The position numbers and the translations under genes were made by a program. 64,000 nt of DNA from Candidatus Falkowbacteria bacterium (GTDB lineage: Bacteria > Patescibacteriota > Patescibacteriia > UBA11705): NCBI GenBank assembly GCA_003518055.1, contig DOZJ01000004.1, positions 6,073 to 70,072 on the forward strand, written 5' to 3'. The number at the start of each line of letters is the position of its first letter. Position 1 is the stretch's first letter. The notes beneath the pieces are model-generated. The model saw nothing but the letters and a program-made list of their open reading frames with translations, did no database searches and had not been told where the DNA came from. Shown here in pieces: positions 5,790 to 48,187 of the stretch.

Positions 5790-6557
5790 CTACTCATTTA
5801 ACAAATCCAGCACCTCCCGAGCCAATTTGCTATAAGCCTTGGCCCCTTTGGACGTTGGATCATATTGGGAAATGGCCAAACCGTGACTCGGCGATTCTGA
5901 CAACCGCACGTTCCTCGGAATGGTTGACCGAAAAATTTTGTTGGGAAAATGCCGATACAAATCCTGCATGACTTGTCCGGACAATCTTGTCCGTTTATCA
6001 AACATGGTAATCACCGCTCCCAACACGTTAAGATTTTCTTTGATATTTTCTTTTACCAAGGATACCGTATTCAGTAATTGACCCAATCCCTCAAGCGCGT
6101 AATATTCCGCTTGAACCGGAATCAACAAATGATCCGCCGCCACCAATCCATTTATCGTGAGAATCCCAAGCGATGGCGGACAATCAATCAAAATCACGTC
6201 ATAATCGCTTTTCACTTCAAGCAAAGCGTCAGATAATCGAAACTCCCGCCGATCCACATCCACCAATTCCACATTGGCACCGGCCAAAGCCGGAGTTGAC
6301 GGCGCGATTCTATAACCATGAATCCCCGTCGGCATCACGATTTCTCGAACCATATGACTACCAATCAAGGCTTCGTATATCCCCTTGTCCAAATCTTGAT
6401 AATTAACTCCCAGTCCGGAAGAAGCATTGGCCTGAGGATCCAAATCAACCAAAAGTACATCCTTGCCATGTTCGGCCAAGTATGCCCCCAAATTTATCGC
6501 GGTTGTCGTTTTGCCCACCCCGCCCTTCTGATTGACTACACCAATAATGTGAGCCAT
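5790..6557 (-). CDS. parA: Chromosome partitioning ATPase ParA/Soj.
   Basis: Walker A GVVNQKGGVGKTTTAINLG; VLLVDLDPQANAS. I place the start at the internal ATG (MAHIIGV) because the upstream TTG used by the ORF track overlaps the -10 element of the predicted promoter. Confidence 0.85.
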   Translation of the reverse strand: MAHIIGVVNQKGGVGKTTTAINLGAYLAEHGKDVLLVDLDPQANASSGLGVNYQDLDKGIYEALIGSHMVREIVMPTGIHGYRIAPSTPALAGANVELVDVDRREFRLSDALLEVKSDYDVILIDCPPSLGILTINGLVAADHLLIPVQAEYYALEGLGQLLNTVSLVKENIKENLNVLGAVITMFDKRTRLSGQVMQDLYRHFPNKIFRSTIPRNVRLSESPSHGLAISQYDPTSKGAKAYSKLAREVLDLLNE

Positions 6558-11751: not shown

Positions 11752-12861
11752 TCCGACGGCCGTATTCACCCATTTGAATCTTTCAGCCGCGACTTTCCCT
11801 TTTGTTACCAATTCGGTTATCAGTGCTTCACTCGCGAGCACTTTTTTTATTGCCGAATACCAGTCGATATCATCGTGAGGCGGTATCAATAACGCGGCGC
11901 CGTCATTCACCAATTCTTCCGTCACCGGAATCTTTGAAGCGATCACCGGCACACCCTGCTTCATTGCTTCAAGGATTGGCAGACCAAAACCTTCGTTTAA
12001 CGATGGAAAAACAAAACATTTGGCCTGTTGCATCAATATGTTTCGCTCCGTGTCCGTAACCTTGCCGATATACCGAATCGCTTGCTCACCTATTTGCTGA
12101 TTTACTTTAATCATTGTTCGGAAAATTTTTCGATATTTCCACCCTTTAATGCCAGCCACCACCAACTCAACTTGACCGGGAAATTCTTGGGCATATTTAC
12201 CAAAAACGTGAAACAAATGCCGTAAATTCTTTCTCGGCTCGATCGTACCCACGAAAAAAATATAATCTTTCTTAATTTTAAATTTATCTTTGACCTCTTT
12301 GATTTCTTTTTCTCCATACGTGACTCTATCTTCAACCCCGGAATAAACCGTTATCACATCCTTTTCTCTTTTGAATTTAAACAAATAAAGCAGCTCTGTT
12401 TTAGTCGCGTTGGAAATGGTCATAATATTGGTTGCCTTGGCGATACTCGACGGCACCACCAGCAATTTTGAAAACCACTGCTTGTTCGGAAACCATTCCG
12501 GATAATTATAAATCAATAAATCATGAATAATGAGCGTACTTTTGCCCACATAAAAAAACGGCATAACATTGGCGGGGAAAATACACCAATCGAGCCATTC
12601 ACCCCAGAGATTAAACGTAAAACCAACGTGAGCCGAAAAAAACGGCACTCGATTTTTCACTTTTACCACTTTAAATCCACGATGAGTTCGCAACGCGTTC
12701 AACGTTTCCTCGCCAATCTGTTCATCAAAAAACAACACGTATTCGCTGTTTCTATCCTGAGCCAGAATCGCTTTAACCAAATTAAAAACATACCGCGGAA
12801 TTCCAGCTCCGCGATTATTTTTCACATCATAAATTTGTCGGCAATCAATTCCGATTTTCAT
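11683..12861 (-). CDS. Glycosyltransferase family 4 (GT-B fold).
   Basis: MKIGIDCRQI...; FVGTIEPRKNL; FVFPSLNEGFGLPILEAMKQGVPVIAS (EX7E-like motif). Confidence 0.85.
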   Translation of the reverse strand: MKIGIDCRQIYDVKNNRGAGIPRYVFNLVKAILAQDRNSEYVLFFDEQIGEETLNALRTHRGFKVVKVKNRVPFFSAHVGFTFNLWGEWLDWCIFPANVMPFFYVGKSTLIIHDLLIYNYPEWFPNKQWFSKLLVVPSSIAKATNIMTISNATKTELLYLFKFKREKDVITVYSGVEDRVTYGEKEIKEVKDKFKIKKDYIFFVGTIEPRKNLRHLFHVFGKYAQEFPGQVELVVAGIKGWKYRKIFRTMIKVNQQIGEQAIRYIGKVTDTERNILMQQAKCFVFPSLNEGFGLPILEAMKQGVPVIASKIPVTEELVNDGAALLIPPHDDIDWYSAIKKVLASEALITELVTKGKVAAERFKWVNTAVGLLKMIKLPNEQDKNNLDQKSEF

Positions 12862-12880
12862 AATACAAAATTTATCTTTT

Positions 12881-13393
12881 TCAATCTGCGTTCAAACCAA
12901 AAACCGCCAGCCCTCCGATACTAACGAGCGTGACGATAATCCCCGCGATAATTGTCCCTAGAGACACCAGCCAAAACGCCTTTTTCTTTTCAACCCCAAA
13001 CAAATACGCCGCCGCTGCCCCGGTCCAGACACCAGTTAGAGGCAATGGTATGGCCACAAATATCACGAGAGCGATCTCTCCGTAGGTTAAGTACTTTCCT
13101 TCAAATTTTTTTCTGGTTCGCTCAAATAACCAGCTAAAAAATTTATCCGCCCACCTGAATCTAGGCCGCAAAAATTTGGTGGCCAAATCAAGCGAATAAA
13201 CTAAAACAAAGGTTATAAATACACTCCCAAGAATCGACCAAAAAAACGCTGACCAAGCGGACATTTTGAATAACCCCATCGCTACCGGTATTGAAGCGCG
13301 AACTTCGGTCAATGGAATAATCGCCAATAAAAAAGTCGCCAATTCATGCGGCAAATTTTTCACCCAGTCTACAACAAACATAATTATTTCCAC
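12881..13393 (-). CDS. Small integral membrane protein (COG2426-like; putative small exporter).
   Basis: Four to five hydrophobic helices and no soluble domain. Confidence 0.4.
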   Translation of the reverse strand: MEIIMFVVDWVKNLPHELATFLLAIIPLTEVRASIPVAMGLFKMSAWSAFFWSILGSVFITFVLVYSLDLATKFLRPRFRWADKFFSWLFERTRKKFEGKYLTYGEIALVIFVAIPLPLTGVWTGAAAAYLFGVEKKKAFWLVSLGTIIAGIIVTLVSIGGLAVFGLNAD

Positions 13394-14337
13394 AAATAAT
13401 TTTTAAACACCCAATCAGCCAATACTTTTGTATCTTGAAATCTATCAGTAATCGTATCACTATTCAAGGCCACGAACATCACCGATTTGTCTTCATATTT
13501 TATCTCAACAGCCAGACAATAACCGGCTTCAGGCAAAAATCCGGTTTTACCGCCGATCAATTCATATCCAAATTGTTCGCTGTTCAAAAAACTTTCAAGC
13601 AAAATATCCGTATTAACGATTCTTCTTTTTTTCTCGTTATTCAATATATCAAACGAATATTCAGACTGCAACACCGATTCTCTGATTTCATTATGCTGCA
13701 AAGCAGCGTAAACCATTTTGGCCACATCGGTGGCCGTCGACACATTGGCCGGATCAAGTCCGGTCGGATCAGCGAATTTCGTATTATACAGTTTCAATTG
13801 CTTGGCTTTATCATTCATCATTATTACGAAATCAGTCTCAGAAACCCCTAAACTTCTAACCATTGCCAGGATCGCGTTGTTATCCGAACTGATCAACGCC
13901 GCTTTCCACAAATGGAAAAAGGTCACTTCTTCTCCACGATACAAATGAGGATATGCCCCGCTGGTCTCATCTCCGGCCGTCATCACGACTGTTTTATTCC
14001 AATTCGGCCGCAAATCCAAGATCACCATAGCGGTCATCAATTTGGTAATGCTGGCAATCGGCTGCTTTAGCTGGGCTTGATTTTCAATCAACACCAAACC
14101 GGTATCCACATCAATCGCGACATATTTCTCCGCCGTAATCTCGACGCCGATATTTTGTTCATTGACTCGGATTGGGATGTCATCAGAGTATTGAATCTCA
14201 GGCGTCAAAAAAACCCGCTGCTCGTTTTCCACCGTATAAACCCCCGCTTGAGTACTGATTAAAATCAAACTTAATATGATTCTTAAAACTGGCATAATGC
14301 GTAAACTTAATCTACACCCCCGGCTCGTCTTTTGCAC
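13384..14337 (-). CDS. D-alanyl-D-alanine carboxypeptidase (PBP5/6-like S11 peptidase).
   Basis: SxxK SITK (ASITKLMTAMVILD); SxN SSDNNA; KTG GGKTGF; signal peptide. Confidence 0.85.
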   Translation of the reverse strand: MQKTSRGCRLSLRIMPVLRIILSLILISTQAGVYTVENEQRVFLTPEIQYSDDIPIRVNEQNIGVEITAEKYVAIDVDTGLVLIENQAQLKQPIASITKLMTAMVILDLRPNWNKTVVMTAGDETSGAYPHLYRGEEVTFFHLWKAALISSDNNAILAMVRSLGVSETDFVIMMNDKAKQLKLYNTKFADPTGLDPANVSTATDVAKMVYAALQHNEIRESVLQSEYSFDILNNEKKRRIVNTDILLESFLNSEQFGYELIGGKTGFLPEAGYCLAVEIKYEDKSVMFVALNSDTITDRFQDTKVLADWVFKNYLWK

Positions 14338-36708: not shown

Positions 36709-37173
36709 TTGTTAAAATGTCTATATATGGAAAATACCCACCCCACAATTCAAGACGTCCTTCAAGCAGTCAATGCGACAACCGAATCAACAAACAAACA
36801 ATTCGCCCAAATTCAAGAACAATTTAATGATGTCTTGCAATCGGTAAACACAGCTTCTGAATTGACCCAGAAACAATTTGATCATGTTCAAGAACAATTT
36901 GATCACGTTCAAGGACAATTTGATCAGATGCAAGGCCAAATCACCGAAATAAATGAAACCATGGCCACGAAGGCTGACTTGGCCGATCTTGTTACCAAAG
37001 ACTACCTTGACAACAAACTCGCTGACCTGCGTGGCGATTTAGTTGTTTTAACGCGTAAAGAAGACACCAAACTAAAAAAACTGGTGGATATTTTGACCAC
37101 AAAAAATCTTCTTTCCCCGGAAGAAAAAGAAGTCATTTTTGCCTTGGAGCCATTTCCGAAAACTCGCTTATAA
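36709..37173 (+). CDS. Hypothetical coiled-coil protein with QF-x-x-VQEQFD heptad-like repeats.
   Basis: Repeats QFAQIQEQFNDV / QFDHVQEQFDHVQGQFDQMQGQ. Confidence 0.4.
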   Translation: MLKCLYMENTHPTIQDVLQAVNATTESTNKQFAQIQEQFNDVLQSVNTASELTQKQFDHVQEQFDHVQGQFDQMQGQITEINETMATKADLADLVTKDYLDNKLADLRGDLVVLTRKEDTKLKKLVDILTTKNLLSPEEKEVIFALEPFPKTRL

Positions 37174-38434: not shown

Positions 38435-38605
38435 AAATCAATTAATTTATTCTTGTTTAATTATATCACGCCTAATTTTCTTGACAAAAAGCCCCCTACT
38501 GAAAATAACAATAATCAATTTTAATATAAATCTAATTTGACAAAAACACCATTTAATCATAATGTTCATCAAGGATCATTCACCCACTAAACCGGGAGTT
38601 GACTC

Positions 38606-39520
38606 ATGTCCTTCAAAACCCTGCCAGTAAAGAAAATTCGTCCCGAAGCAACATTGCCTATTCGCACTACTGACAATGCGGTTGGCTATGATGTTTTCGC
38701 TTCCACTGCATTCCGTGTTGATCGTGCCGATGATCAAAGAAAAATTCAAGAAGAAATCCCTTTTCCGGTAACGATCAATCCGCATGAAAGTTTTCTTTTT
38801 GGTATTGGCATTGCCATGGCTCTCCCGTGGCCTTATGAATGCCAAGTCCGGTCACGAAGCGGCATCGCAACTTATGATAAAATTCAAATGCTCAATTCAC
38901 CTGGCACGGTTGATCCTGATTTCCGCGGTGAAGCCGGCGTGCTTCTCTTTAACCAAGGGAGCAAGCCTTACTTGGTCCACCCCAACCAAAGAATCGCGCA
39001 GTTGATTTTTTCTAAAGTGGAAATTCCAGACTTGATTGAAACAGATGAATTGCCGGAAACTCGCCGCGCTGAAGGTGGGTTCGGTTCCACCGGCCAATTT
39101 GGCACCGGCCTCGGCACCGAAGAATATCGACGCCGCCAATCGATTATCGATCAACAGTTCATGGCTATGGCGGAAGCGTGCGGCCTCCGTGCCAGAATCA
39201 GCTCCAGTCAAAAATCAAGCGGCTGTGTCATTGTCCATCGCGACAATATCATTGCATTTGGCTGCGAAAATTGCGCCTTATCATTTACTCCAATCAGCTG
39301 TATCCTTGATGCGATTACCAAGGCGGCCAGAGCTGGACATTCGACTCATGACAGCTGCGCCTATGTGACAGCCGATGAGATTTCCATCGTTGATCTGAAT
39401 CTTCTAATTTATTCCGGCATCACTGAAGTTGTATTCCCTGCCGCCACGACTGAAAAAGCCGTCACGCAAAAAATTGTCAAACATTTGTCCAAAGTAAATA
39501 TCGAAGTCCGCTACGCCTAA
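38606..39520 (+). CDS. dut: dUTP diphosphatase fused to a C-terminal degenerate dCMP-deaminase-like domain.
   Basis: All five dUTPase motifs are present (AVGYDV, RSRSG, GTVDPDFRG, QRIAQL, RAEGGFGSTG). Residues 165-304 align to ComEB (QQFMAMAEACGLRARISS...GCVIVHRDNIIAFG against QYFMAQSHLLALRSTCTRLAVGATIVRDKRIIAGG), but the HAE and PCxxC motifs are not evident. Confidence 0.7.
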   Translation: MSFKTLPVKKIRPEATLPIRTTDNAVGYDVFASTAFRVDRADDQRKIQEEIPFPVTINPHESFLFGIGIAMALPWPYECQVRSRSGIATYDKIQMLNSPGTVDPDFRGEAGVLLFNQGSKPYLVHPNQRIAQLIFSKVEIPDLIETDELPETRRAEGGFGSTGQFGTGLGTEEYRRRQSIIDQQFMAMAEACGLRARISSSQKSSGCVIVHRDNIIAFGCENCALSFTPISCILDAITKAARAGHSTHDSCAYVTADEISIVDLNLLIYSGITEVVFPAATTEKAVTQKIVKHLSKVNIEVRYA

Positions 39521-39546
39521 ACACCGTCACAATCGGTGTTTTTTCT
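39521..39546 (+). terminator. Rho-independent terminator after the dut-fusion gene.
   Basis: Stem acaccg/cggtgt with loop tcacaat, then a T6 run. Confidence 0.65.
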
Positions 39547-40095
39547 TCAACTGCGCCTTTCGCAACCGACAGAACCATGTTTTACCGCGTTATATCGAAT
39601 ATAATGACGAATCCGTTCCAATGATTTTTCATCACGAATAATGTGATCATGATATGATCGTTGCCATTTAAAATTTAACCAACCTGATTGATGGATTAAT
39701 TTGGATGCGGCGGATTTAAACGATCCAATTATCACCGGCAATTTTTCATAATTATGATTATTAATTACCACCGGTAAATGTAGGTGCAAGGTATGCCTTG
39801 CACCTACATTTACGTTGCCGGTCCCAATCACATCATCCAAATTTTTAATAAATAAAATACCATGAACATGATCCGGTAATACGTTAAATTCATCTATTTC
39901 CACTATTTCAAAATGTCGCTCTAGCTCCACCCAACATTTTTTCACCCATTCTCCGTATTGATTTAGTTTCATTTCTCCCTCGATAATTCTACCCAAATCA
40001 AAACTCCCGCGCCTCACTTTGATCGTCACAAAATAATAACCATATCGGCCGTAATTCCAACCGTCCAAACGCCTTGATTTATATTCATTAAACAT
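39547..40095 (-). mobile_element. tnpA: IS200/IS605-family (HuH Y1, RAYT-like) transposase TnpA gene.
   Basis: YYFVTIKVRR; HuH motif LPDHVHGILFI; C-terminal SYHDHIIRDE...YIRYNAVKHG. It carries an unusual insert of about 30 aa between the HuH motif and the IIGSFKS helix. Confidence 0.65.
39774..39813. repeat. A perfect 18-bp inverted repeat (gtaaatgtaggtgcaagg / ccttgcacctacatttac) with a 4-nt loop, lying inside the tnpA coding sequence.
   Basis: Read directly from the sequence. It maps onto the extra GNVNVGARHTLHLHLP segment of TnpA. Confidence 0.85.
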
Positions 40096-40126: not shown

Positions 40127-41065
40127 ATGATTAAAAATGCTAAACTTATCCATATGACAAACTTTTTTATTCGGCAGAAATTCATCGATGAACGCCTCGA
40201 CAAATATTTGGTGGCGCGGCTGCGTCTCTCACGCAATCAAGTCCAAAAATTAATTAAGCAGCATCAAATAACCGTTAATGACCGCCTTCCCAGCGTCCAT
40301 CAATTTTTACGCTCCGGCGACAAAATTTCCATCAACCAACCCGCGACGGCCCAAACCGATAACAGCGTCAAAACCGTTCCCAAAATTATCAAAACGACCG
40401 CCGACTATTACATCATCAATAAACCAGCGGGATTACTGGTTCATCCAACCGCTAAAGGCGAAACCGATACGCTGCTTGATTGGCTGCTTGCCTTTGATCC
40501 CAAATTAAAAACCGTCGGCGACGACCCCAACCGCCCGGCGCTCATTCATCGTTTGGACAAAGAAGTTTCCGGTCTGATGATTATTCCCCGCCACTTGGAT
40601 GCGTTTGACCATTTCAAAAAATTATTCAAAACTCGCGCCATTCACAAAACCTACGTCGCTCTGGTCCACGGCACCATCGCCGCCGAATCCGGTATTATTA
40701 ACTTCCCCATAACGCGGTCAAAATCAGGTTTATATGTCGCTTCACCGCAAAATTCCGCCACCGGCCAATCCGCCGAAACCAGATTCAAAGTGACCAAACG
40801 GTTTGATCACCACACGCTACTCGAAATCAACCCCAAAACCGGCCGCACCAACCAAATCCGCGTTCATCTCAATGCCATTGATCATCCGATTGTCGGCGAC
40901 CCGCTTTATACCAACGCCAAAATCAAACCTCAATACAATTTCAATCTCGACCGCGTATTTCTCCACGCCGCCGAATTGAATTTTGTCGATCTTAATCAAC
41001 AATCAGTATCTGTAAAATCAACTTTGCCTAAAAACCTTCAAACCATTCTTGAATCACTCGATTAG
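40127..41065 (+). CDS. rluD: 23S rRNA pseudouridine synthase (RluA family, RluD-like), with an S4 domain.
   Basis: S4 domain RLDKYLVARL; HRLDKEVSGLMII (catalytic Asp); GRTNQIRVHL. Confidence 0.85.
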   Translation: MIKNAKLIHMTNFFIRQKFIDERLDKYLVARLRLSRNQVQKLIKQHQITVNDRLPSVHQFLRSGDKISINQPATAQTDNSVKTVPKIIKTTADYYIINKPAGLLVHPTAKGETDTLLDWLLAFDPKLKTVGDDPNRPALIHRLDKEVSGLMIIPRHLDAFDHFKKLFKTRAIHKTYVALVHGTIAAESGIINFPITRSKSGLYVASPQNSATGQSAETRFKVTKRFDHHTLLEINPKTGRTNQIRVHLNAIDHPIVGDPLYTNAKIKPQYNFNLDRVFLHAAELNFVDLNQQSVSVKSTLPKNLQTILESLD

Positions 41066-41066
41066 T

Positions 41067-41885
41067 ATGGCTTTTAATTTTCACAACCAACCGATCCAGA
41101 CAATCTATGAACCGACACCGGACCGAACCCGCGATCTGACGGAATTTGCTGTCTTAGTCAACACTCAACTGGATTCAATCCTCCAAACCAGCCACCTGCC
41201 ATACACCGTCTCCGGAGAAAAAAAACCAATCACCATTTCCATTCAATTCACTCATTTTTTGGGACCTGACGAATCCAAAGTTGTCACACCGCCGTCAAAA
41301 TTAAAATCGCCGCAAACCATTACAATCACCATTGAAATTGATCGCGCCAACCGCTTTCGTCATCTTCGGACATCCGAAACGAGTAAACTGCTCGAAGATA
41401 CACTGGCTTTCGGCCTTTCCAATTTAACTGTCCGACAAAAATTAACCGCCGCCACCACCGCCGGTGATGAGCAAACAATCGCCAAAATAATTTACACTCT
41501 GCTTGATAAAAGTTTTGCCACCAAACAGCTGCGCAAAAGCGACCAGTGCCGAACCAAAGACGATCTGGGTGTTTATCTGTCCAACTCCATTTTCAAAACC
41601 CTTGACGCGCCGCAACTCAAAACATTTCTCACTTATCTGATCAAAAATATTTTGGCCCAAACCGCCGTGGCCGCTCGTCAAACCGAGATCTCAGATGACG
41701 GGCTGGCTCAAATTTTATCTTCTCAATTTGATCATCTTGTCGCGCTAGAATTCAACCGGACATTTGATCCGGAAATAAAAACCTCCGTCGGCCGCTATCT
41801 CGTTGACAAAACCGCAGACGTCGCCGCCCGCGGCGCCATGTTTGAAGCCTTGAAACAACAAATTATCAACGATCTAGTTTCTTGA
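41067..41885 (+). CDS. Hypothetical protein.
   Basis: The ORF sits in the operon between rluD and the CCA-adding enzyme gene. It shares the LT-x-LIKN motif with the next ORF. Confidence 0.4.
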   Translation: MAFNFHNQPIQTIYEPTPDRTRDLTEFAVLVNTQLDSILQTSHLPYTVSGEKKPITISIQFTHFLGPDESKVVTPPSKLKSPQTITITIEIDRANRFRHLRTSETSKLLEDTLAFGLSNLTVRQKLTAATTAGDEQTIAKIIYTLLDKSFATKQLRKSDQCRTKDDLGVYLSNSIFKTLDAPQLKTFLTYLIKNILAQTAVAARQTEISDDGLAQILSSQFDHLVALEFNRTFDPEIKTSVGRYLVDKTADVAARGAMFEALKQQIINDLVS

Positions 41886-42916
41886 ATAATTTTTTCGCCA
41901 TGTCCAAATTCATCAAACCAATCAATCAACTCGAGTTCTGGCGCGGTGACCAAACCCTGCCGCCCGGGCACAAACTCCAATGGCACGACCGCAAATTGGT
42001 CGCCCTTGATGTTGGTTCGGAATTCCAGCAATTCCTCGCCGAATTGAAAGAAACCAACAAAATTTTAAACCGCCTTTTTGAGGCGAAACTTCAAGCCGCT
42101 GGTCTGCCCTTTAGCACCAAACCCGACAAAGAGATTTTCCAGCTGACCCTGCGATTTGCGCCGCCATATACCAGTCCGTTTGAACAAACTAAAAGTGAAC
42201 TTGAAGCTAAAGCCGCCAAAGGCGAACGTTATTCCCCCAGCGCCGACGAAATAATTTTTTATCTGCATGTAGATGAAGACCAACAGTTCCACGGTGCCCG
42301 AACTGTAGCCTATGATGCTCTGAGACTTGGTGCCATAACGGACAGCCTGACGAACCAAGGAATAAATTCCTTTCACCTTGATGCCGCATTAACCGCTCTC
42401 ATAAAAAATCAGGACGTAAGCGGTATCACCGATTTATTGATCAAGAGACTCCAAAAATCCGGTGAGGTTAAAAACATTTTGGCTTATACCGACGTTTCAA
42501 CCGTTGAGGAAGCGCGAGTTAATTTTGCTCAACCATATTTTAGCAACTTCAATCGGACCATTTACCGCAATTTCGCTGAAGCCATGTTGCTTAAAATTCT
42601 CAGACACGAAATTGATTCATACATCACCGAGCCCTCCCTCACCCCCAAGGAAAAAGAAGCCACCGCCGCGCAACAAAAAAACCGTCTCTTGGAGATTATC
42701 CTGGAGTTTACAAAAATAAAAATCGGCAGTTACCACCCCATCGATATGGAAACAATTTTAAGCCCGAATATATCTCTCAAAAATCTTGATCTTGACAAAC
42801 TCTCAGCGGAAGATATCGAACACTATGTTAATATCCAAACTCGTGCTTATTATTATTCATTGATCAAACGTGCAGAAGATGAAGCCAAAAGTCAGCGTTC
42901 AGCGCCCAAAAAATAA
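41882..42916 (+). CDS. Hypothetical protein, a distant paralog of the preceding ORF.
   Basis: Four-base overlap with the previous gene. No recognisable catalytic motif. Confidence 0.4.
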   Translation: MNNFFAMSKFIKPINQLEFWRGDQTLPPGHKLQWHDRKLVALDVGSEFQQFLAELKETNKILNRLFEAKLQAAGLPFSTKPDKEIFQLTLRFAPPYTSPFEQTKSELEAKAAKGERYSPSADEIIFYLHVDEDQQFHGARTVAYDALRLGAITDSLTNQGINSFHLDAALTALIKNQDVSGITDLLIKRLQKSGEVKNILAYTDVSTVEEARVNFAQPYFSNFNRTIYRNFAEAMLLKILRHEIDSYITEPSLTPKEKEATAAQQKNRLLEIILEFTKIKIGSYHPIDMETILSPNISLKNLDLDKLSAEDIEHYVNIQTRAYYYSLIKRAEDEAKSQRSAPKK

Positions 42917-42921
42917 CCTTT

Positions 42922-44409
42922 ATGGAACATCGGCTTGAACATCAAGACCAAAACCCAATTAAAGACCGCTTCAAACAAAAAATTGAGAGCGAGCCTAATC
43001 TTGAATTTATCGATCAACTGTTCGAAATGTTCCCCGCCGCTAAAATTTATCTTGTAGGCGGAATTGTTCGAGATACCTTAATCGGTGAACACGTCAAATC
43101 AAAAGATTATGATTTTATCATCTGCGGGGTTCCCCATCAAGAGCTCGAAGCCGCGATGACCAAACTCGGCCAATGGACCTTTGCCGGTAAAAATTTCGGC
43201 GTCTACAAATTTCGGCCGTATAATTTTACTTTAAAACACGAATTTGACATTGCTCTCCCCAGAACCGAAAAAGCTCGCGGCACCGGCCGCCGCGCCGACG
43301 TCGATGTCCAATCCGACCACACCATGAAGGTCGAGGATGATCTCGGCCGCCGCGATTTAACCATCAACGCTATGGCCTGGGATCTAAGAAATCACACGTT
43401 GATTGATCCTTTTCACGGCCGCCAAGATTTACGCGACCGCAAAATTCGCTCTGTTGGCAATCCATTCGATCGTTTTACCGAAGATCGATCCCGAATGCTG
43501 AGGGCTATCCGCTTTGCCTGTAAATTTAATTTTGCCCTTGATCCTTTGACCTACGACGCTATTGAATCTTTCATGCCTCGCATCAACGATGCCGAGCTTA
43601 ATCCGGAAACCAATAAAGTCGAAAAAATCACACCGATGGAAACCGTCAAAACCGAAATTTTTAAAACCTTGGCCGCCGACCCGTCAAAAGCCTTTCGGCT
43701 ACTAGAAAAAACCGGCGCTTGGCGGGCTATATTACCTGAATTGGATATTCTGAGAAACAACCCTGAAATATGGAAACAACTGAAAACTTCACTGGAAATT
43801 TTATCCAAAGAAAATTTGGAAGCTGAGCTGGCCGAAGAATACACCCTCGATGTTTCCACTTTTCACAAATCCGGTGACTTTGTTTTTGCCGTCATTTTAT
43901 ATTATCTCAAATTAGCCCTGCCTCCACAGGTTGAAGCTAACACCAAAAAGGCTACTCGTCGAGACAACCCCATCAATCAAATTTATCATCGCTTTGTTCT
44001 GACCAATCCGGAAAAAAACAAAGCTTCATGGTTAATCGATAACATTGACGTCTTTACCACCGGTCTACCCACCAACTGGGCTGACCAAGAAAAACTTTTA
44101 GCGCACCAACACACCGCCGACGCTCTCGCTCTGGCCCTAATCATTCACCAAACCGACGATCAACTCGATGATCACCTGCGATATGAAAATCAAAAAGACG
44201 CTATCAATGCCTTTGGTCAACTTTTTGCTGCAACCGGTGAACTGCCACCACCACTTCTAAACGGCCGAGACATTTTACAAGAACTCAACATGGATAAAGG
44301 CGGACCGATTGTGGCGGAAATCCAAAAAAAATTGCGTCATTTACAGTTATCAGGCAGAATCAAAGATAAAAAGACCGCTATCGAGTGGCTTAAAACTCAT
44401 TCATTATGA
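42922..44409 (+). CDS. tRNA nucleotidyltransferase / poly(A) polymerase family (CCA- or A-adding enzyme).
   Basis: Head-domain motifs IYLVGGIVRDTLIG..DYDF and RRDLTINAMAWD. Confidence 0.75.
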   Translation: MEHRLEHQDQNPIKDRFKQKIESEPNLEFIDQLFEMFPAAKIYLVGGIVRDTLIGEHVKSKDYDFIICGVPHQELEAAMTKLGQWTFAGKNFGVYKFRPYNFTLKHEFDIALPRTEKARGTGRRADVDVQSDHTMKVEDDLGRRDLTINAMAWDLRNHTLIDPFHGRQDLRDRKIRSVGNPFDRFTEDRSRMLRAIRFACKFNFALDPLTYDAIESFMPRINDAELNPETNKVEKITPMETVKTEIFKTLAADPSKAFRLLEKTGAWRAILPELDILRNNPEIWKQLKTSLEILSKENLEAELAEEYTLDVSTFHKSGDFVFAVILYYLKLALPPQVEANTKKATRRDNPINQIYHRFVLTNPEKNKASWLIDNIDVFTTGLPTNWADQEKLLAHQHTADALALALIIHQTDDQLDDHLRYENQKDAINAFGQLFAATGELPPPLLNGRDILQELNMDKGGPIVAEIQKKLRHLQLSGRIKDKKTAIEWLKTHSL

Positions 44410-45011
44410 AAAAAAATTACAAATCCGGCTTTATTGTTGTCATCGCCGGCCCGACCGGAGTCGGTGAATCAACGGTTACCAAAGCCTTGATCAAACTTTA
44501 TCCCAACGCTATTAGATTGGTTACAACCACATCAAGACCAAAACGCCTGAATGAACAGAATCATATCGATTACCACTTTCTATCAAAATCCCAATTTGAA
44601 AAAAACATTCAGGCCGGCCAATTTTTAGAATGGACCTACATCAAAAAACGAGATGTTTATTATGGTACCAAATTGGCTGATTACACCAAACTTCTAAATC
44701 AAGGTAAAATGATTTTTTTCAATTGTGATGCCAAAGGTCTTCAAGCCGTTCGTAAACAATTTCCCCAACAAAATGTTTCATTTTTTATCACCTACAAATC
44801 AATCAATGACAACCGCCGAAGATTGCTTCATCGCGAGCCCAATATTACGCCTGAAGAATTAAATAAACGAATAGAATACGCTACCTTTGAAGTTCTTCAT
44901 GAAAAAAAATACTACGATCGTGTAATTGTTAATTACATGGGAAAACTGCCTGAAACCGTCAAAAAAGCCAAAACAATCATTGATCATGCCCTAAAACAAG
45001 CCAACTCTTGA
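44406..45011 (+). CDS. gmk: Guanylate kinase.
   Basis: P-loop GPTGVGEST; TTSRPKRLNEQNHIDYHF; YYGT. Confidence 0.75.
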   Translation: MKKNYKSGFIVVIAGPTGVGESTVTKALIKLYPNAIRLVTTTSRPKRLNEQNHIDYHFLSKSQFEKNIQAGQFLEWTYIKKRDVYYGTKLADYTKLLNQGKMIFFNCDAKGLQAVRKQFPQQNVSFFITYKSINDNRRRLLHREPNITPEELNKRIEYATFEVLHEKKYYDRVIVNYMGKLPETVKKAKTIIDHALKQANS

Positions 45012-46999: not shown

Positions 47000-48187
47000 T
47001 CATTTACCGGACATCTTCTTGGGCATGAATTGCTGAATTTTTTGCATCAATTCATAAGGCTGCCCACTCATCAAACATTCCATACTCAGTTTAAACCCCT
47101 CCTCAAAAGTTGCCGCCTTTTCTGCGAGCCATAACAATACCGCCGCGTTTGCCACCACCAAATCACGAGCCGCCCCCTGAATATCTCCCTTGAGCAAAGC
47201 TAATGAAAATTGACCCTTATCACCAATCGGCGTAATCGCGTCAGCATCAATCGGGTCCAAACCAAAATCTCGTGCTTCCAACTCATATTCATGAATTTTT
47301 CCATGACGCAATTCCGCCACCATGGTTCCACCAGCGCATACTGATACTTCATCCATTCCCCGATAATGATGTTTATCGATAAAACCACGAACCACCAATA
47401 CTCGTTCAAAAAAAGTCACTCCCCTTTCATTTAATACCTGCAGGGCTTCGGCCACCACTCTGGGTTTCACCAAATGATTAACACCGATCACCCTTCGAGT
47501 CATGATTCTTGGATCAATCGGATTAGTAATGGGTCCAATAATATCATTCATGTGGGGCAGTTGCGCGATTTCATGAGTCTGCAGGTGTATTACTTTGTAA
47601 TTCGTATCAAGCGCTTCAGTATAGCCAAAACCAAATTGTTCAATCGCTAACTCAACTTCATTGCGCTTGCTGTACTCATTGATATTACAAATTAAAGCTA
47701 CAAAATCTGAACTGCCGTAACGACCTTGATCAGCGTTGGCCGGAGATCCATGTTTTCCCATGGAGATTCCCATCGCCGCCGCAATAAATGCCGCCACCGT
47801 ACTGACGTTCGGAGTCACCACCAAATCTCCACCCATGCCGCAATTATCCATTACCATCGATACCTTGGGAGTCAAAAATCCGTAACGTGACCTTCTAATA
47901 TCAGCTTCAAATATCGCTGCGCACACCCCCGCAATCTGCTCCGCCGCATTGGCTGGCAGCCGATGGCCGTGCAAATCTTCCGCTTTCTGCGACCTGACCC
48001 ATTTATAAGTCGCGTAATTATGAAGCGCGCTCAATGCCGCCACGCTCTGAATCTGAGCCAAACGATTCCCATTACATCCTTGTAGTGCATACAACCCCAA
48101 GGCATATGCCTCTTCATACGTTAACGGAATATTCTGATACGCATGATTTTTCAACACATGCTTGATGTTCACGTTCTCCATTGCCAT
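47000..48187 (-). CDS. Anthranilate phosphoribosyltransferase-like (TrpD / glycosyltransferase family 3) protein.
   Basis: MDNCGMGGDLVVTPNVSTVAAFIAAAMGISMGKHGS compared with the TrpD segment DTCGTGGDG..T.NIST..A.V.AA.G..V.KHGN. Confidence 0.6.
   Translation of the reverse strand: MAMENVNIKHVLKNHAYQNIPLTYEEAYALGLYALQGCNGNRLAQIQSVAALSALHNYATYKWVRSQKAEDLHGHRLPANAAEQIAGVCAAIFEADIRRSRYGFLTPKVSMVMDNCGMGGDLVVTPNVSTVAAFIAAAMGISMGKHGSPANADQGRYGSSDFVALICNINEYSKRNEVELAIEQFGFGYTEALDTNYKVIHLQTHEIAQLPHMNDIIGPITNPIDPRIMTRRVIGVNHLVKPRVVAEALQVLNERGVTFFERVLVVRGFIDKHHYRGMDEVSVCAGGTMVAELRHGKIHEYELEARDFGLDPIDADAITPIGDKGQFSLALLKGDIQGAARDLVVANAAVLLWLAEKAATFEEGFKLSMECLMSGQPYELMQKIQQFMPKKMSGK

Follow-up and report, generated by a model that had tools for sequence, protein, structure and literature searches.

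A dUTPase fused to a degenerate deaminase-fold domain in Candidatus Falkowbacteria, and the Patescibacterial fusion family around it

A gene in the genome of a Candidatus Falkowbacteria bacterium (assembly GCA_003518055.1, contig DOZJ01000004.1) encodes a dUTPase (Dut) whose C-terminal half resembles the dCMP deaminases and carries none of their catalytic motifs. The gene lies in a stretch of 64,000 nucleotides (positions 6,073 to 70,072 of the contig, forward strand) that is referred to here as the window. Its organisation raises the question of why a deaminase-like domain that appears to be dead is kept behind a dUTPase that appears to be intact. The explanation that we regard as probable, though some way from certain, is that the protein is an active Dut with a relic deaminase domain that is non-catalytic, probably architectural in its role, and under purifying selection.

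The open reading frame (ORF) at 38606-39520 on the forward strand is real. It begins with ATG, runs over 304 codons to a stop and gives the 304-residue product that had been described from the sequence alone (hereafter the sequence-only reading). A public entry (P0001) with exactly this protein sequence is named 'dUTP diphosphatase [Candidatus Falkowbacteria bacterium]'. Six metagenomic contigs, from groundwater and other sources, carry the same gene with identical DNA; a JGI contig of 305 kb is the longest of them. Since this identical DNA recurs on independent contigs of several samples, and orthologues occur in conserved synteny, an assembly or frameshift artefact has been rejected. The six copies from different samples show no difference at the DNA level, and polymorphism therefore gave no refinement of the constraint on the gene.

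All five dUTPase motifs, which the sequence-only reading had placed in the N-terminal half, are found there between residues 25 and 163. Two family alignments have been used, in which the protein of the window is accompanied by 19 relatives (A1) or by 117 relatives (A2, 118 sequences). The columns occupied by motifs I to V are invariant over 118 relatives in the alignment, and in motif III the residues G100, T101, D103, P104, D105, R107 and G108 show no variation in the 118 aligned sequences. The dUTPase profiles score above their cut-offs: TIGR00576 with 120.7 bits (cut-off 102.55) and NF001862 with 119.5 bits (cut-off 103), both over residues 8-164, and PF00692 with 70 bits against a cut-off of 22 (E-value 2e-19). 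A sequence search of the PDB retrieves solved dUTPases at an E-value of 8e-27, with no gaps across motifs II to V.

The AlphaFold model of the full-length fusion has a predicted local distance difference test score (pLDDT) of 89.5. In this model the Dut half forms a jelly-roll β fold that is matched by Foldseek to solved Duts of the PDB (8hrv, 8xhm, 1sjn and others) with E-values of 1e-15 to 1e-13, a template modelling (TM) score of about 0.9 on target length and a root mean square deviation of 1.2-2 Å. Judged by its motifs and predicted fold, the N-terminal half is a complete dUTPase of the trimeric type. That this half is active-looking (dUTP to dUMP and pyrophosphate) is strongly supported by the same comparisons. 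The linker region is poorly modelled (pLDDT 59-68 at residues 151-170). In the Foldseek search of the PDB no solved chain covers both halves of the fusion; relative to query length the TM score reaches at most 0.45, and none of the top-ranked targets listed is as long as 165 residues. Assignment of the protein to the single-domain Dcd:Dut bifunctional enzymes has been considered and rejected, as PF22769 scores 26.9 bits against a cut-off of 27 and TIGR02274 only 33 bits against 92.8; the latter value also agrees with the earlier statement that the known Dcd:Dut bifunctional enzymes are of another architecture.

The C-terminal domain, residues 165-304 taken alone, is recognised by the family PF00383 (dCMP_cyt_deam_1) with 26.8 bits (cut-off 25, E-value 4.9e-6), which is the outcome of the hidden Markov model check that the sequence-only reading had proposed for the C-terminal 140 residues. 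On the whole protein the same family scores 24.6 bits, just below the cut-off of 25. The domain alone has no significant match among PDB sequences (best E-value 0.65) and no meaningful match in NCBIfam; only Pfam, the family alignment and the fold reveal its homology.

The AlphaFold model of residues 160-304 (pLDDT 88.7, predicted TM score 0.84) has the expected order of helices and strands. When this domain is compared with the PDB by Foldseek, dCMP deaminases rank first with E-values of 4e-8 to 1e-6 and TM scores of 0.65-0.70. The top targets are PBCV-1 bi-DCD (7fh4), the Streptococcus mutans enzyme (2hvw), S-TIM5 (4p9e), T4 (1vq2) and the human enzyme (2w4l), followed by RibD and TadA. With targets of 126-147 residues, the alignments are about 140 columns long; according to the model, the domain is therefore a whole deaminase fold, shortened by two deletions of about 20 residues each. 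The earlier assignment of this half to dCMP deaminase stands as far as the fold is concerned (PF00383, Foldseek), whereas its restriction to the N-terminal half of such an enzyme does not. Identification as a toxin-type MafB19-like deaminase has been rejected, as the PF14437 scores of 16-19 bits stay below the cut-off of 27 and the catalytic residues are absent; this match reflects only cross-matching within the superfamily.

Absence of the zinc-binding and catalytic motifs HxE and PCxxC, claimed by the sequence-only reading, is confirmed by the alignments, in which the strings it had quoted, ISCILDAITKAAR (230-242) and YVTADEISIVD (253-263), are the true equivalent positions. The nearly invariant H-A-E columns fall in a gap of the protein of the window; when helix 2 is followed backwards from the conserved Ala236, they correspond to S231-C232-I233. 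The columns of PCxxC are occupied by E258-I259-S260-I261-V262. At the catalytic positions the alignments with 19 and 117 relatives show neither His nor Glu nor a Cys pair. Structure prediction with inspection of the zinc site, which had been suggested as a further check, gives a deaminase fold, and the alignment reveals no intact zinc or catalytic site.

Two segments are also missing. The cap insert of the dCMP deaminases bears a second zinc site (PMC3239186). This insert, of about 21 residues, is deleted in the protein of the window just upstream of helix 2, and with it the second-site Cys columns, which are nearly invariant in the intact fusions described below. The other deletion has removed a K/R-rich insert of about 20 residues between helix 1 and strand 1, and the domain of the clade of the window is shorter by about 40 residues. 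From the loss of the zinc-ligand His and both Cys, of the catalytic Glu and of the cap insert, it follows that the domain should neither bind a catalytic zinc nor deaminate.

The allosteric motif of the dCMP deaminases is G(Y/W)N(A/G) (PMC12088426). Intact fusions have G-F/Y-N-x at this position, aligned with GYN of T4 and GWN of S-TIM5. The motif reads G-C-E-N in the window and G-Y-D-N and G-Y-C-L in its orthologues P0002 and P0003, so that the Asn is lost in all three.

Four cysteines in the window (C192, C220, C223 and C232; 39179-39301) form a C...CxxC...C cluster where the dCMP deaminases hold the second zinc. A remodelled Cys4 zinc site made of these residues has been rejected, since three of the four are absent from P0002 and P0003.

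The degenerate C-terminal domain is shared by two other proteins of Falkowbacteria. P0002, from Falkowbacteria CG10 (GCA_002773615.1), is 64% identical to the protein of the window and has the same residues at the HxE columns. P0003, from Falkowbacteria RIFOXYC2_FULL_36_12, is 46% identical and reads SAE at the HxE site, with the Glu kept and the His lost; based on this sequence it looks like an intermediate state of decay. All three genes stand in one gene order, which comprises AsnRS/AspRS paralogues, a CMAS-type methyltransferase, the fusion, RluD, two hypothetical proteins, a CCA-adding enzyme and guanylate kinase. This conserved synteny strongly supports their orthology. D182, D235, D263, GHST (244-247) and R302 remain conserved among the three proteins. 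No relative between 64% and 100% identity is present among 5.8 billion proteins. An exhaustive phmmer search with the C-terminal domain of the window against 1.84 billion representatives retrieves only its own cluster P0001 and P0003, and the degenerate clade is therefore small.

Selection on the dead domain has been assessed by comparison of these orthologues. Between the window and P0002 the C-terminal 140 residues align without a gap at 52% identity, and the Dut halves at 74%. By the method of Nei and Gojobori, the proportion of nonsynonymous differences (pN) in this domain is 0.33 and that of synonymous differences (pS) is 0.67, near saturation; synonymous sites are saturated in all three orthologue pairs (pS 0.67-0.88). 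Pairs of intact fusions at the same Dut divergence (70-75%) have a mean identity of 57% in the C-terminal domain, with a range of 28-83%, within which the degenerate pair falls. The value for the window and P0003 (34-35%) is lower than the mean of the intact pairs (47.5%), yet in their range. Because pN is far below pS, no gap occurs over 140 residues and the identity lies in the range of intact domains, purifying selection on the dead C-terminal domain is strongly supported.

Relatives of the whole protein have been collected by a search of 5.8 billion proteins (E-value up to 1e-3), of which the best 120 of 225 were inspected. The combination of Dut and deaminase was found in at least 225 protein clusters of Patescibacteria. 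Nearly all of the best 120 are about 335-340 residues long, have PF00692 followed by PF00383 and, where named at all, are called just 'dUTP diphosphatase'. HAE and PCxxC are both present behind Dut motif V in 106 of these 120, and both are absent from the window, P0002, P0003 and P0068; once genome loci are included, 128 sequences are classed as intact. The C-terminal domain of an intact member (P0004) is best matched by sequence to the dCMP deaminases of T4, S-TIM5 and S. mutans, motif to motif. The alignments of the fusion family cover both halves, with G170 and D182 invariant.

An alignment-based scan of GTDB species representatives reveals the fusion in Falkowbacteria, Berkelbacteria, Uhrbacteria, Wolfebacteria, Buchananbacteria, Paceibacterota and others; a scan of genome contigs with the single protein had given nothing. 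The search for the same fusion in other genomes, proposed by the sequence-only reading, thus shows that it is neither unique nor rare. The same reading knew of no described fusion of this kind. This appears to hold for the literature searched, where no description of a Dut-dCMP deaminase fusion was found, and does not hold for the databases, where the fusion is widespread over many candidate phyla. Descent of the protein of the window from this family of intact bifunctional fusions is strongly supported by the sequence comparisons.

The intact fusions carry, between helix 1 and strand 1 (residues ~190-220 of P0004), the K/R-rich insert with the consensus CVRGxKxxxGxYxRDxxGxLxGQTRKFGC; as aligned here, the enzymes of T4, S-TIM5 and S. 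mutans lack it. Among DCTD-like enzymes, those with triphosphate substrates are recognisable by their accumulated Lys and Arg residues (PMC12088426). The insert of the intact fusions might form a triphosphate pocket. Speculatively, the fused deaminase may then act on dCTP and hand the dUTP over to the Dut half (dCTP to dUTP to dUMP), since a canonical dCMP deaminase often adjoins the intact fusion and the fused one may not be redundant with it.

Catalysis has been lost elsewhere in the family as well. P0068/L022 have PVE or SAE at the HxE site and no PCxxC, and L027 has lost both motifs. Two fusion ORFs of about 285 residues (L019 and L023) read C-A-V at the HxE site and keep PCEVC, so that the catalytic Glu alone is lost; P0032 and P0036 are of the matching short form with CAE and PCDIC, and judged by these motifs are probably still active. 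In L038, L043 and L047 the protein consists of Dut alone and ends in a linker remnant. For each of these groups the nearest neighbours by Dut are intact fusions. Catalytic residues have thus been lost independently, with the fold kept, in at least three other lineages, an approximate count based on these neighbours.

Several of these loci also encode a separate deaminase. In L006 (P0068; 688-2406) a canonical dCMP deaminase of 177 residues (HAE, PCFIC) is separated by 30 bp from the degenerate fusion downstream of it, and tmk comes next. Both L022 (2380-6255) and L027 (2386-5261), with degenerate fusions, have the order dCMP deaminase, fusion, tmk, thyX. Copies of the L006 stand-alone deaminase that are 93% and 85% identical are found in L012 and L013, where the fusion gene is absent from the cluster; close relatives of this deaminase stand in the order NusG, L11, dCMP deaminase, Tmk, ThyX, uninterrupted by a fusion gene. 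A deaminase lies upstream in L043 and L047 too, where the Dut is alone. The surroundings of intact fusions often include tmk, thyX and a stand-alone dCMP deaminase; in L021, L029, L031 and L036 such a deaminase is the neighbour of the fusion. Many Patescibacteria therefore encode two deaminase modules in the neighbourhood of dTMP synthesis. Such redundancy is the likely cause of the decay of the fused deaminase, because L006, L022 and L027 each have a canonical dCMP deaminase immediately in front of the degenerate fusion.

Two further arrangements of the Dut of this family have been observed. In L038 (3001-4173) a separate ORF, about 120 bp downstream of the Dut-only gene, encodes a deaminase that has HSE, PCEYC and a canonical GYNG motif; fission or replacement could account for this. 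In L040 (2006-2700) the Dut is fused instead to a hydrophobic C-terminal tail that resembles a membrane segment.

According to the explanation that we favour, the ancestor was a two-domain enzyme, both halves of which served dUMP/dTMP synthesis. In the Falkowbacteria lineage the deaminase half has lost the zinc ligands, the catalytic Glu (which P0003 keeps), the cap insert, the insert of about 20 residues and the allosteric Asn, while its compact α/β core has been kept. The relic may now keep Dut trimers together in an assembly of higher order, or it may serve the motif-V arm by stabilising or positioning it. By our own reasoning, a ring of C-terminal domains capped by Dut trimers would be geometrically plausible, given that DCTD forms a ring hexamer and Dut a trimer. 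In vertebrate CDADC1 the inactive N-terminal DCTD-like domain is an integral structural part of the ring (PMC12088426), and a CDADC1 structure (9hfs) is among the Foldseek matches of the C-terminal domain of the window (E-value 7.5e-5).

Several points weigh against this explanation. The architectural role is our inference from sequences and single-chain models. The C-terminal domain is wholly lost in L038, L043 and L047 and is thus not generally needed for the function of Dut. The ratio of nonsynonymous to synonymous rates (omega) is bounded only, below about 0.25, since the synonymous rate is saturated. AlphaFold was supplied with an alignment in which intact homologues predominate, and its model may be biased towards the canonical fold as a result. 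Neither a stand-alone deaminase nor ThyX or Tmk is encoded in the window, in the 10 kb adjoining one of its ends, or in L001-L004 including 10 kb around the orthologues, and since no second deaminase is seen nearby, the argument from redundancy rests, for the clade of the window, on other lineages.

Other roles of the dead domain have to be weighed against an architectural one. Retention without any function, the domain decaying as redundant and persisting because its deletion has not yet occurred, agrees with the repeated loss of catalysis, with the loss of the whole domain in L038, L043 and L047 and with the disappearance of about 40 residues from the domain in the clade of the window. We nevertheless hold this to be improbable. 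The frame is open and has no indel over 140 codons relative to the 64% identical orthologue, at saturated synonymous sites; pN (0.33) is well below pS, and the identity of the domain is normal for the divergence of the Dut. The domain is moreover retained in P0003 at 46% identity, and its predicted core is well packed (pLDDT ~89). The dead domain could instead act as an adaptor, alternating with active ComEB-type subunits in a mixed ring and so tethering Dut to a deaminase in a complex that produces dUMP, as dead and active DCTD-like domains form one ring, NCNCNC, in CDADC1 (PMC12088426). In agreement with this, a canonical dCMP deaminase is encoded directly upstream (~30-90 bp) of the degenerate fusion in L006/L022 and L027, and 7813 matches show that stand-alone enzymes of this kind are very common in Patescibacteria. 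The pair ADAT2/ADAT3 offers a similar assembly of an active with an inactive deaminase. Such adjacency is however explained equally by simple redundancy, and the intact fusions L021, L029, L031 and L036 adjoin stand-alone deaminases too; in the 64-kb window, 10 kb beyond one end and 10 kb around the orthologues in L001 and L003, there is no stand-alone deaminase that could be recruited. The adaptor is for these reasons rather unlikely in our view.

The sequence-only reading had proposed a nucleotide-sensing regulatory domain. As an allosteric sensor the dead domain would bind dCTP or dTTP in the old allosteric site, or dCMP or dUMP in the old active site, and tune the dUTPase. The DCTD family is allosterically regulated by dCTP and dTTP (PMC12088426), a property of the parental family that speaks for such a sensor, as do the purifying selection on the C-terminal domain and the conservation of a few acidic residues peculiar to the clade, D235 and D263, beside the former zinc site, in the window, P0002 and P0003. 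The allosteric Asn is however replaced by E, D and C in the three orthologues, and the allosteric site of DCTD lies at protomer interfaces stabilised by loops that are deleted in the domain of the window. In addition, PMC4827122 describes classical dUTPases as not allosterically regulated. With the Asn lost from three of three orthologues, the proposal has found no positive evidence, and the sensor appears to us quite improbable. More broadly, we see only a slight chance that the dead domain is a functional module that either senses a nucleotide (dCTP, dTTP or dCMP) or recruits a stand-alone dCMP deaminase, the dUTPase being regulated or held in a complex by it. If this were so, a regulated dUTPase would be unusual in a class regarded as unregulated.

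The features of the gene and of its product are collected in the table.

Features of the fusion gene and its product (positions in the window)
Feature	Residues	Positions	Strand	Remarks
Shine-Dalgarno-like GGGAG		38594..38598	+	7 nt 5' of ATG; direct sequence reading
ORF, 304 aa and stop	1-304	38606..39520	+	complete; dUTPase fused to degenerate deaminase-fold domain
dUTPase domain, trimeric Dut type	1-164	38606..39097	+	TIGR00576, PF00692, PDB dUTPases, Foldseek
Dut motif I AVGYDV	25-30	38678..38695	+	A25, G27, D29 in invariant or nearly invariant columns
Dut motif II RSRSG	82-86	38849..38863	+	R84, G86 invariant
Dut motif III GTVDPDFRGE	100-109	38903..38932	+	holds catalytic Asp
Dut motif IV RIAQ	129-132	38990..39001	+	alignment of 118 sequences
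Dut motif V RRAEGGFGSTG	153-163	39062..39094	+	C-terminal arm
Gly-rich linker QFGTGLGTEEY	164-174	39095..39127	+	G170 invariant in whole fusion family
Predicted deaminase-fold pseudo-enzyme domain	~172-304	39119..39517	+	order α1-β1-β2-α2-β3-α3-β4-α4-β5
FGCENC, allosteric-motif position	218-223	39257..39274	+	Asn replaced by Glu
ISCILDAITKAAR, expected HxE site, helix 2	230-242	39293..39331	+	no His, no Glu
TADEISIVD, PCxxC position	255-263	39368..39394	+	P, C, C replaced by E258, I259, V262
Terminator-like hairpin, then T-run		39519..39541	+	overlaps stop codon; consensus match only

The neighbouring genes include some further features. Between the fusion gene and rluD lies an ORF of 182 residues on the reverse strand (39547-40095), in which PF01797 (IS200-like Y1 transposase) scores 21.5 bits against a cut-off of 23. 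The syntenic locus L001/L014 has no equivalent of this gene, and a Y1_Tnp gene occurs near rluD in L005. Two adjacent ORFs of 278 and 344 residues on the forward strand (41049-41885 and 41882-42916) have no Pfam match; in Falkowbacteria L001 two unannotated genes (11915-12904 and 12935-13765) occupy the matching place between rluD and the gene of the CCA-adding enzyme. An ORF of 154 residues upstream of the fusion gene (36709-37173, forward strand) contains a repetitive Gln-rich, coiled-coil-like stretch, QFDHVQEQFDHVQGQFDQMQGQ, and scores 25 bits with DUF948 against a cut-off of 37. Guanylate kinase (44406-45011, forward strand) and a 395-residue Glycos_transf_3 protein (47000-48187, reverse strand) are both syntenic with L001. 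The Glycos_transf_3 family includes thymidine phosphorylase and anthranilate phosphoribosyltransferase. None of thyX, thyA, tmk and a dCMP deaminase gene is encoded in the 64-kb window.

Patescibacterial genomes are minimal, and these bacteria rely strongly on nucleotide salvage; their supply of dUMP and dTMP is a gap in current knowledge. Most of the interest of the locus lies in the parent family, since the fusion of Dut with a zinc deaminase is a common and under-described enzyme of Patescibacteria. If the fused deaminase does act on dCTP, the dCTP-to-dUMP fusion would be a second and independent invention of the Dcd:Dut logic, and the protein of the window its natural deaminase-dead form. 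The family offers a natural series, from intact through Glu-lost and zinc-lost to domain-lost proteins, that can be used to study how a catalytic domain turns structural or regulatory. For annotation, the deaminase-dead fusions are not to be counted as dCMP deaminases in metabolic reconstructions.

Among known systems, the homotrimeric dUTPases (EC 3.6.1.23; Helicobacter pylori 8HRV, Aquifex aeolicus 8Y1Q, M. tuberculosis 1SIX) resemble residues 1-164 of the protein of the window in motifs, profile score and fold. It differs from them by the domain of 140 residues that stands directly behind the motif-V arm. This domain shares its α/β fold with the zinc-dependent dCMP deaminases (DCTD/ComEB; 1VQ2, 2HVW, 4P9E, 7FH4, 2W4L), which are its best structural matches; lacking HxE, PCxxC, the cap insert with the second zinc and the allosteric Asn, it does not appear to be a functional member of that family.

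Close counterparts are the Patescibacterial fusions (P0004, P0014, P0034), which are 37-47% identical to the protein of the window over their full length and collinear with it, with Dut, a Gly-rich linker and a deaminase domain ending in ...IRY(V). The intact fusions keep HAE, PCxxC, the second-zinc Cys and the K/R-rich insert of about 20-28 residues, whereas the protein of the window has none of these. The Dcd:Dut enzymes consist of one dUTPase-fold domain without a zinc deaminase, in contrast to its two-domain organisation. Their likeness holds for the intact relatives, in which one polypeptide is likewise tied to cytosine deamination and dUTP hydrolysis.

Tad3/ADAT3 is an inactive subunit with the deaminase fold; it has Val in place of the catalytic Glu and keeps the zinc ligands. 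The L019 and L023 fusions share this loss of Glu to Val with retention of the zinc ligands; the domain of the window is decayed further, its zinc ligands being lost too, and the substrate in question is a free nucleotide rather than tRNA. A precedent for the explanation given here is the N-terminal domain of CDADC1 (9HFQ-9HFT; PMC12088426). The dead domain of CDADC1 partners an active deaminase in cis, whereas that of the window is fused to a dUTPase, and the two are of independent origin; in CDADC1 a dead domain derived from DCTD is kept in an oligomeric enzyme of nucleotide metabolism, as is proposed for the Dut fusion of Falkowbacteria.

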